Shown: one piece after another, positions 33,558 to 34,282 of the stretch | Layout: every line of letters begins with the position of its first letter | Position numbering within the stretch: the stretch's first letter is position 1 | DNA from: Escherichia coli | Lineage (GTDB): Bacteria > Pseudomonadota > Gammaproteobacteria > Enterobacterales > Enterobacteriaceae | Length of the DNA: 64,000 nt | Strand: one strand, 5' to 3' | Assembly: GCF_016026235.1 (NCBI RefSeq) | Contig: NZ_CP065613.1 | Position numbers and translations under genes: made by a program | The notes under the pieces: generated by a model | The model's database searches: none | What the model was told of the DNA's origin: nothing | What the model saw: only the letters and a program-made list of their open reading frames with translations

Positions 33558-33574
33558 AAGTGGTCTGACCTGAT
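33558..33574. promoter_or_regulatory. Putative FadR operator upstream of fadIJ
   Basis: AAGTGGTCTGACCTGAT resembles the FadR consensus (ANCTGGTCNGACCNGTT), 27 bp upstream of the fadI start. Confidence 0.5.
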
Positions 33575-33711
33575 CATAGTCTTAACCATTTTTTTACATT
33601 TAGCCAAGCGGAGAAAAGGGAAAGTGGGAGCTATGACACAGAGAGAAAAGAAGAAGAGAAAAGAAAACGCCCCTGCCAGCAATTGACAGGGGCGTACGTA
33701 CCCGAGAGGAA

Positions 33712-33996
33712 TTAACGCAGACCCAGCTGGAAGATCAGCATTTCAGCTTCGCAGGCAAAAGTGAAATCGATATCCAGGCGCACACCATCAGACTCTTCAG
33801 TGAAAGTCGGGGAGATTTTGCACGGTTCGGATTCCACGCTACGGGCTTTCTCAGTCAGCGCCGCCAGCGTTTGTTCTGCTTCTGCGCGGTTTGCAAACAC
33901 GCGGCTGTAAGACGCGGTGCAGTCGGAGTTGTCCATAATGGTGCCAACATCCATACAGCAGCAAACCGGGGTTTCATCAGCACTACATTTACTCAT
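33712..33996 (-). CDS. yfcZ: Uncharacterised protein YfcZ
   Basis: Start set at the ATG (33996) giving MSKCSADETPVCCCMDVGTIMDNSDC..., 94 aa. Confidence 0.85.
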   Translation of the reverse strand: MSKCSADETPVCCCMDVGTIMDNSDCTASYSRVFANRAEAEQTLAALTEKARSVESEPCKISPTFTEESDGVRLDIDFTFACEAEMLIFQLGLR

Positions 33997-34241
33997 CGTT
34001 GATTTCCTCTGTATGTGCACCCAAGGTGCCAGATAAACGTTGTGGATATTTTACGCTTCCGGAAAGTGCTGCTCCAGTTGTTAATTCTGCAAAATCGGAT
34101 AAGTGACCGAAATCACACTTAAAAATGATCTAAAACAAAATTCACCCGAATCCATGAGTGCGCCACCTCCAAATTTTGCCAGCTGGATCGCGTTTCTTAG
34201 ATCATATTTGAAAAAAGATAGAAACATACTTGCAACATTCC

Positions 34242-34282
34242 AGCTGGTCCGACCTATACTCTCGCCACTGGTCTGATTTCTA
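34242..34282. promoter_or_regulatory. Two putative FadR operators in the fadL promoter
   Basis: AGCTGGTCCGACCTATA (34242..34258) and ACTGGTCTGATTTCTA (34267..34282), both matching the FadR consensus, about 90-125 bp upstream of fadL. Confidence 0.55.

Follow-up and report, generated by a model that had tools for sequence, protein, structure and literature searches.

Three 17-mers on either side of yfcZ as FadR operators of the Escherichia coli fadIJ and fadL promoters

Results

The fadI-yfcZ-fadL locus

The DNA analysed here is a 64-kb stretch of an Escherichia coli chromosome (the window), whose segment from 33400 to 34500 was matched at an identity of at least 95% in 5425 of 5426 complete E. 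coli genomes, with fadI, yfcZ and fadL as the annotated features under the match. The yfcZ gene and the fadIJ operon are co-oriented, and fadL diverges from yfcZ (Table 1). The calls of fadI, yfcZ, fadL and fadJ made in an initial sequence-only reading agree with the RefSeq annotation and with NCBIfam, whose FadI, FadJ and FadL equivalog scores far exceed the cut-offs; the fadL ATG used here is the counterpart of the RefSeq start in K-12. A strong terminator-like hairpin stands between yfcZ and the fadIJ promoter on the same strand, and beyond it lies a long plus-strand run of purines (pyrimidines as read along yfcZ; 33640-33666) that is unconserved across genera. The fadR gene, which E. coli carries as a species, is absent from the 64-kb window.

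A search based on YfcZ, restricted to a single genome for each species, yielded 80 loci, which came from 19 named Enterobacteriaceae genera and some MAGs. The order fadI-yfcZ-fadL was retained in all 78 loci in which both neighbours were testable, and these covered the 19 named genera. The yfcZ-fadL spacer measured 362-378 nt in every locus but one (400 nt), and the fadI-yfcZ spacer varied from 155 to 323 nt from species to species.

Three 17-mers resembling the FadR operator flank yfcZ. One motif just upstream of fadI and two upstream of fadL had been reported in the sequence-only reading, which presented them as matches to a consensus and not as measured binding. All three were found where it had placed them, the interval 33558-34282 running exactly from the first base of the first 17-mer to the last base of the third. 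Their description as palindromes holds for the fadI site and fadL site 1, each of which has a perfect GGTC-n-GACC dyad core, but not for fadL site 2, in which only the left half (CTGGTC) is good and the right half (GATTTC) is degenerate.

Table 1. Features of the window bearing on FadR control, by position
Feature	Position	Strand	Remarks
fabB	13434-14654	minus	
fabB FadR activator site	14721-14737		AACAAGTCCGATCAGCC, reverse complement of GGCTGATCGGACTTGTT (fabB strand); 67-83 nt upstream of the fabB ATG
fadJ	30077-32221	minus	second in the fadIJ operon; NCBIfam FadJ equivalog, 1344 bits; RefSeq annotation
fadI	32221-33531	minus	first in the fadIJ operon; NCBIfam FadI equivalog, 898 bits; RefSeq annotation
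Probable FadR operator, fadIJ promoter	33558-33574	minus	AAGTGGTCTGACCTGAT; ATCAGGTCAGACCACTT on the fadI strand; 26 nt upstream of the ATG
Putative fadIJ core promoter	33578-33606	minus	-35 TTGGCT (33606-33601), 17-nt spacer, -10 AAGACT (33583-33578)
CRP-like box	33625-33640	minus	TGTGT-N6-TCCCA; at -61.5 of the putative start; conserved across genera
yfcZ intrinsic terminator	33667-33695	minus	12-pair stem with 8 GC pairs, then a T-rich tail
yfcZ	33712-33996	minus	between the operators; translation; NCBIfam DUF406, 156.6 bits; RefSeq annotation
fadL CRP site	34102-34117	plus	AGTGA-N6-TCACA; one mismatch to consensus
fadL FadR site 1	34242-34258	plus	AGCTGGTCCGACCTATA; 109 nt from the fadL ATG; EMSA probe fadL-FadR1
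fadL FadR site 2	34266-34282	plus	CACTGGTCTGATTTCTA; 85 nt from the fadL ATG; EMSA probe fadL-FadR2
fadL	34368-35708	plus	446 aa counted from the second ATG; NCBIfam FadL equivalog, 877.8 bits

Motif scores against background

We compared the three sites with the 17-bp FadR consensus aaCTGGTCnGACC(T/A)Gtt, taken from a review (PMC9329746), and found 14 of 16 matching positions at the fadI site, 13 of 16 at fadL site 1 and 11 of 16 at fadL site 2, a weak fit to the motif. With at most three mismatches allowed, only the fadI site and site 1 were matched in the 64 kb, giving three strand-matches against 0.59 expected, a count equalled by 7 of 100 shuffles. A position weight matrix was then built from FadR sites of other loci only, namely fadBA, fadD, fabA and fabB (from the probe table of PMC4259882) and fadE (PMC10272880). 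By this matrix the fadI site ranked first in the 64 kb (18.4 bits, reached by about 1% of null 64-kb sequences), site 1 ranked fifth with 10.1 bits, a score attained by most random 64-kb sequences, and site 2 ranked 28th with 4.7 bits, indistinguishable from background. The matrix scan proposed in the sequence-only reading thus bears out the fadI site, leaves site 1 borderline and does not recover site 2. From sequence alone, the fadI site is convincing, site 1 is borderline and site 2 is undetectable; what raises all three above chance is their placement and conservation, not their score.

The core TGGTCnGAC occurs eight times in the window against about one expected from dinucleotide shuffles. 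Six of these copies lie outside the fad promoters (at 8631, 9252, 11326, 22880, 32875 and 51634), and because all six are inside long coding frames, codon composition, not regulation, is the probable source of the excess; a hidden FadR regulon behind it was rejected on the same ground. The intergenic cases in the window are the fad and fab sites only.

Geometry of the fadL promoter

The two fadL sites can be placed against experimentally studied DNA, since both K-12 probes listed in Table 2 of PMC4259882, fadL-FadR1 (GCAACATTCCAGCTGGTCCGACCTATACTCTCGCC) and fadL-FadR2 (CTCTCGCCACTGGTCTGATTTCTAAGATGTACCTC), occur verbatim in the window. According to Feng and Cronan (2012; PMC3460868), both sites bind FadR with equal affinity, binding being complete at about 50 nM; the long-chain acyl-CoA oleoyl-CoA abolishes binding at both; and the EMSA results agree with earlier DNase I footprints. 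The same study reports that deletion of fadR raises fadL expression only 2- to 2.5-fold and that repression is weak despite the presence of two sites.

Two landmarks from that work fix the transcription start. The validated fadL CRP site is centred 157 bp upstream of the start, and a second predicted CRP site, centred 57 bp downstream of it, was shown not to bind CRP (PMC3460868). In the window, the validated site is centred at 34109.5 and ranks with the best-conserved parts of the spacer, and a palindrome, TGTTAC-N5-GTAACA, is centred at 34323 (34315-34331). Taken as -157 and +57, the two centres agree on 34267 as the fadL +1, a start that puts site 1 at -25 to -9 and site 2 at -1 to +16. Site 1 overlaps the -10 hexamer TATACT (34255-34260), and site 2 covers the start itself. 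The fadL footprints obtained by DiRusso and colleagues in 1993 are reportedly at -25 to -9 and -1 to +16. A comparison with footprinted sites, which the sequence-only reading had named as the way to check its proposal, reveals no conflict at fadL.

Several further elements were noted in the fadL 5' UTR and the start of its coding region. The stretch CAGACCCTACACTTCGCGCT (34293-34312; +27 to +46) belongs to the top conservation tier of the spacer, above the FadR sites. The sequence at the rejected CRP site is a perfect inverted repeat, TGTTAC-AGCAC-GTAACA, centred at +57 and conserved across genera. Among the early fadL codons, GCAGTGGC (34411-34418) is complementary to what we take to be the 5' end of the sRNA RybB. 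Repression of fadL by RybB through pairing with fadL mRNA is described in a review (PMC9329746). The fold of the fadL 5' UTR is unexceptional (z = -0.59), and an Rfam search of 33400-34600 returned nothing near any gathering score.

The putative fadIJ promoter

The fadI site is both the sole strong FadR match and the most conserved 17-mer in the fadI-yfcZ spacer. That fadIJ is directly repressed by FadR from a site overlapping the transcription start is stated in a review (PMC9329746, citing Campbell et al. 2003), which gives the start as a prediction from a genome-wide study; our full-text literature search found no paper showing the letters of the fadI operator. From conserved blocks in a cross-genus alignment we deduced candidate -35 and -10 elements, which would put the fadI start near 33571, inside the operator. 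On this placement the operator would span about -3 to +14, and some 40 nt would separate the start from the ATG. A simple promoter scan called neither the fadL nor the fadIJ promoter; its sole call, TTGCCA-18-GATCAT at 34176-34205, is at chance level and was discarded.

A CRP site is present in the fadIJ promoter according to the same review (PMC9329746), and the main text of the CRP paper cited for fadIJ does not mention fadI. The CRP-like box upstream of the putative promoter may be this site. It carries two mismatches to TGTGA-N6-TCACA and by sequence is not above chance; as a scan for the CRP consensus gave 26 matches against 27.8 expected, it is the conservation of the box that argues for it.

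Conservation of the three sites

Across about 80 Enterobacteriaceae species, all three sites hold both sequence and position. Conservation was computed on 78-81 distinct spacers. The fadI 17-mer occurs unchanged in 63 of 78 distinct orthologous spacers, is found 23-35 nt from the ATG, and ranks first of the 163 17-mers in its spacer, with 98.6% identity against 66.6% elsewhere. At site 1, conservation reaches 98% or more throughout positions 3-8 and 10-17, and variation is confined to positions 1, 2 and 9, the last being N in the consensus and equal to the window base in only 15% of sequences; at site 2, conservation reaches 95% or more throughout positions 1-14, and the 7-nt gap separating the two sites drifts among species. 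This pattern looks as would be expected for a FadR contact map. The yfcZ-fadL spacer is, however, unusually conserved as a whole, with a mean identity of 78% outside the sites, and some of its blocks without a FadR motif outrank the sites; moreover, because the right half of site 1 also serves as the -10 hexamer and +1 falls within site 2, their conservation could partly reflect promoter function. All three sites emerge from phylogenetic footprinting; a scan by sequence alone finds the one at fadI and perhaps site 1, but misses site 2.

In 4781 of 5425 matched E. coli genomes at fadL and in 4236 of 5297 at fadI, the 69 nt enclosing the operators show an identity of at least 99%, and in the variants sampled the differences lie solely outside the 17-mers.

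Discussion

The three 17-mers are very probably the operators through which FadR acts on the fadIJ and fadL promoters of E. coli, and we hold this reading with high confidence. FadR repression, as proposed in the sequence-only reading, is borne out at fadL by sites that equal the K-12 EMSA probes (PMC4259882, PMC3460868) and at fadIJ by the review (PMC9329746). The motifs are already known, textbook operators of the fad regulon, and both the observation and its interpretation are correct; the reading was also right to call two sites at fadL, probably drawing on prior knowledge. Its significance goes little beyond the quality of the annotation, the placement of the sites having been exact to the base.

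On this reading, low long-chain acyl-CoA leaves each 17-bp operator occupied by a dimer of FadR, a winged-helix repressor of the GntR family. The fadL promoter is then covered over its -10 element at site 1 and over its transcription start at site 2, so that RNA polymerase is kept from forming or clearing an open complex; at fadIJ, a single site of apparently high affinity would be occupied over the putative start. Long-chain acyl-CoA frees FadR from the DNA, upon which fadL, encoding the transporter, and fadIJ, encoding the second beta-oxidation complex, are derepressed, with CRP activation and ArcA repression still applying. A repressor seated over -10 and +1 is what the triangulated start gives at fadL, and at fadI it is indicated by the putative -35 and -10 together with the statement in the review (PMC9329746). 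FadR binding and its release by acyl-CoA at fadL were shown in the literature on identical DNA. At fadIJ, FadR binding comes from the review citation and the position of the start is putative, and steric occlusion there is therefore putative as well.

The same boxes might also, or instead, serve PdhR, a pyruvate sensor, and LldR, a lactate sensor, paralogues of the FadR subfamily that recognise a similar TGGT-n3-ACCA core, and so integrate central-carbon signals with acyl-CoA; we consider this a tentative proposal, less probable than not. Scored against AATTGGTnnnACCAATT or AAnTGGTCnGACCAnTT, the FadR boxes reach 10/14 for PdhR and 11-12/14 for LldR. Genomic SELEX gave an LldR peak in the yfcZ/fadL spacer, in which the authors name both FadR boxes as LldR boxes (11/14 and 9/14; PMC10272880), and PdhR was located in the fadI/yfcZ spacer by genomic SELEX and a gel shift, with fadI mRNA down 1.6- to 4-fold in a pdhR mutant (PMC7660256). 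The box that the PdhR authors assigned lies in the first fadI codons (33511-33527) and scores 7/14, whereas the FadR operator 40 bp away is the best match in the spacer to both the PdhR box (10/14) and the LldR box (12/14), and its higher score suggests that the paralogues may bind the FadR box itself. Nevertheless, the SELEX peaks are modest, the fadI gel shift is a smear (PMC7660256), PdhR matches of 10/14 are common, with 26 17-mer positions in the 64-kb window, and the PdhR effect reported is activation, which is hard to square with a site over the start. FadR binding at the fadL sites, by comparison, has been demonstrated directly (PMC3460868), and binding of the paralogues would add to FadR control, not replace it. 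Cross-recognition by paralogues is a real possibility, yet a secondary one, and a putative sharing of the operators, in which both PdhR and LldR would bind these same 17-mers, that at fadI among them, strikes us as rather unlikely. If it were true, acyl-CoA, pyruvate and lactate signals would vie for a single DNA element in controlling fatty-acid uptake and beta-oxidation, and one operator would tie fatty-acid catabolism to both pyruvate and lactate status.

In a weaker variant of this shared-operator reading, yfcZ may belong functionally to the fad system, because in all the genera examined it sits fixed between two units under FadR control. Repression of yfcZ through the fadL sites is unsupported: about 250 bp separate these sites from the yfcZ ATG, and our literature search found no paper linking yfcZ to FadR.

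Chance resemblance, above all at site 2, with the conservation arising from constraint on the core promoter, the start or the 5' UTR, would accommodate the low matrix ranks of the two fadL sites and the high identity and near-constant length of their spacer, including the motif-free blocks that exceed the sites in conservation, but we judge it highly improbable: for fadL it is contradicted by published EMSA, in which probes of exactly the site 1 and site 2 sequences bind FadR and are released by acyl-CoA (PMC3460868, PMC4259882), and at site 1 the only consensus-defined positions that vary are 1 and 2, and for fadI it is unlikely, given a score found in about 1% of null windows.

The window comes from a non-K-12 strain, and across 33500-34400 it differs from K-12 BW25113 by 11 substitutions, all of them in fadI, yfcZ or the fadI-yfcZ spacer and none within an operator. 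The whole yfcZ-fadL spacer is identical to that of BW25113, and sites 1 and 2 are thus those of the K-12 fadL promoter (DiRusso et al. 1993; Feng & Cronan 2012), with the same spacing and the same placement relative to the CRP site and the start. The fadI 17-mer is likewise unchanged in K-12. The K-12 fadIJ (yfcYX) site (Campbell, Morgan-Kiss & Cronan 2003, via PMC9329746) is also a single 17-mer directly upstream of fadI, and its overlap with the start, as given in the review, fits the promoter proposed here; we infer that it is the fadI site of the window because this is the only strong match in the spacer.

Among the other FadR-controlled promoters, those of fadE (AAGTGGTCAGACCTCCT) and fadBA (palindrome ATCTGGTACGACCAGAT) have sites whose core resembles that of the fadI site, and the single-site layout is similar as well; fadBA and fadE each have a single strong site over -10/+1, in promoters distinct from that of fadI. 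By contrast, fadL and fadD have two sites each and are more weakly repressed (PMC3460868). A fourth FadR site in the window lies upstream of fabB, where the stretch 14721-14737 equals the fabB EMSA probe except for one flanking base. Its core is TGATC/GACT, as against TGGTC/GACC at the fad sites. The palindrome AGCGTACACTTGTACGC adjoining it is presumably the FabR site. According to the cited literature, the fabB FadR site lies upstream of the promoter, and there FadR activates rather than represses.
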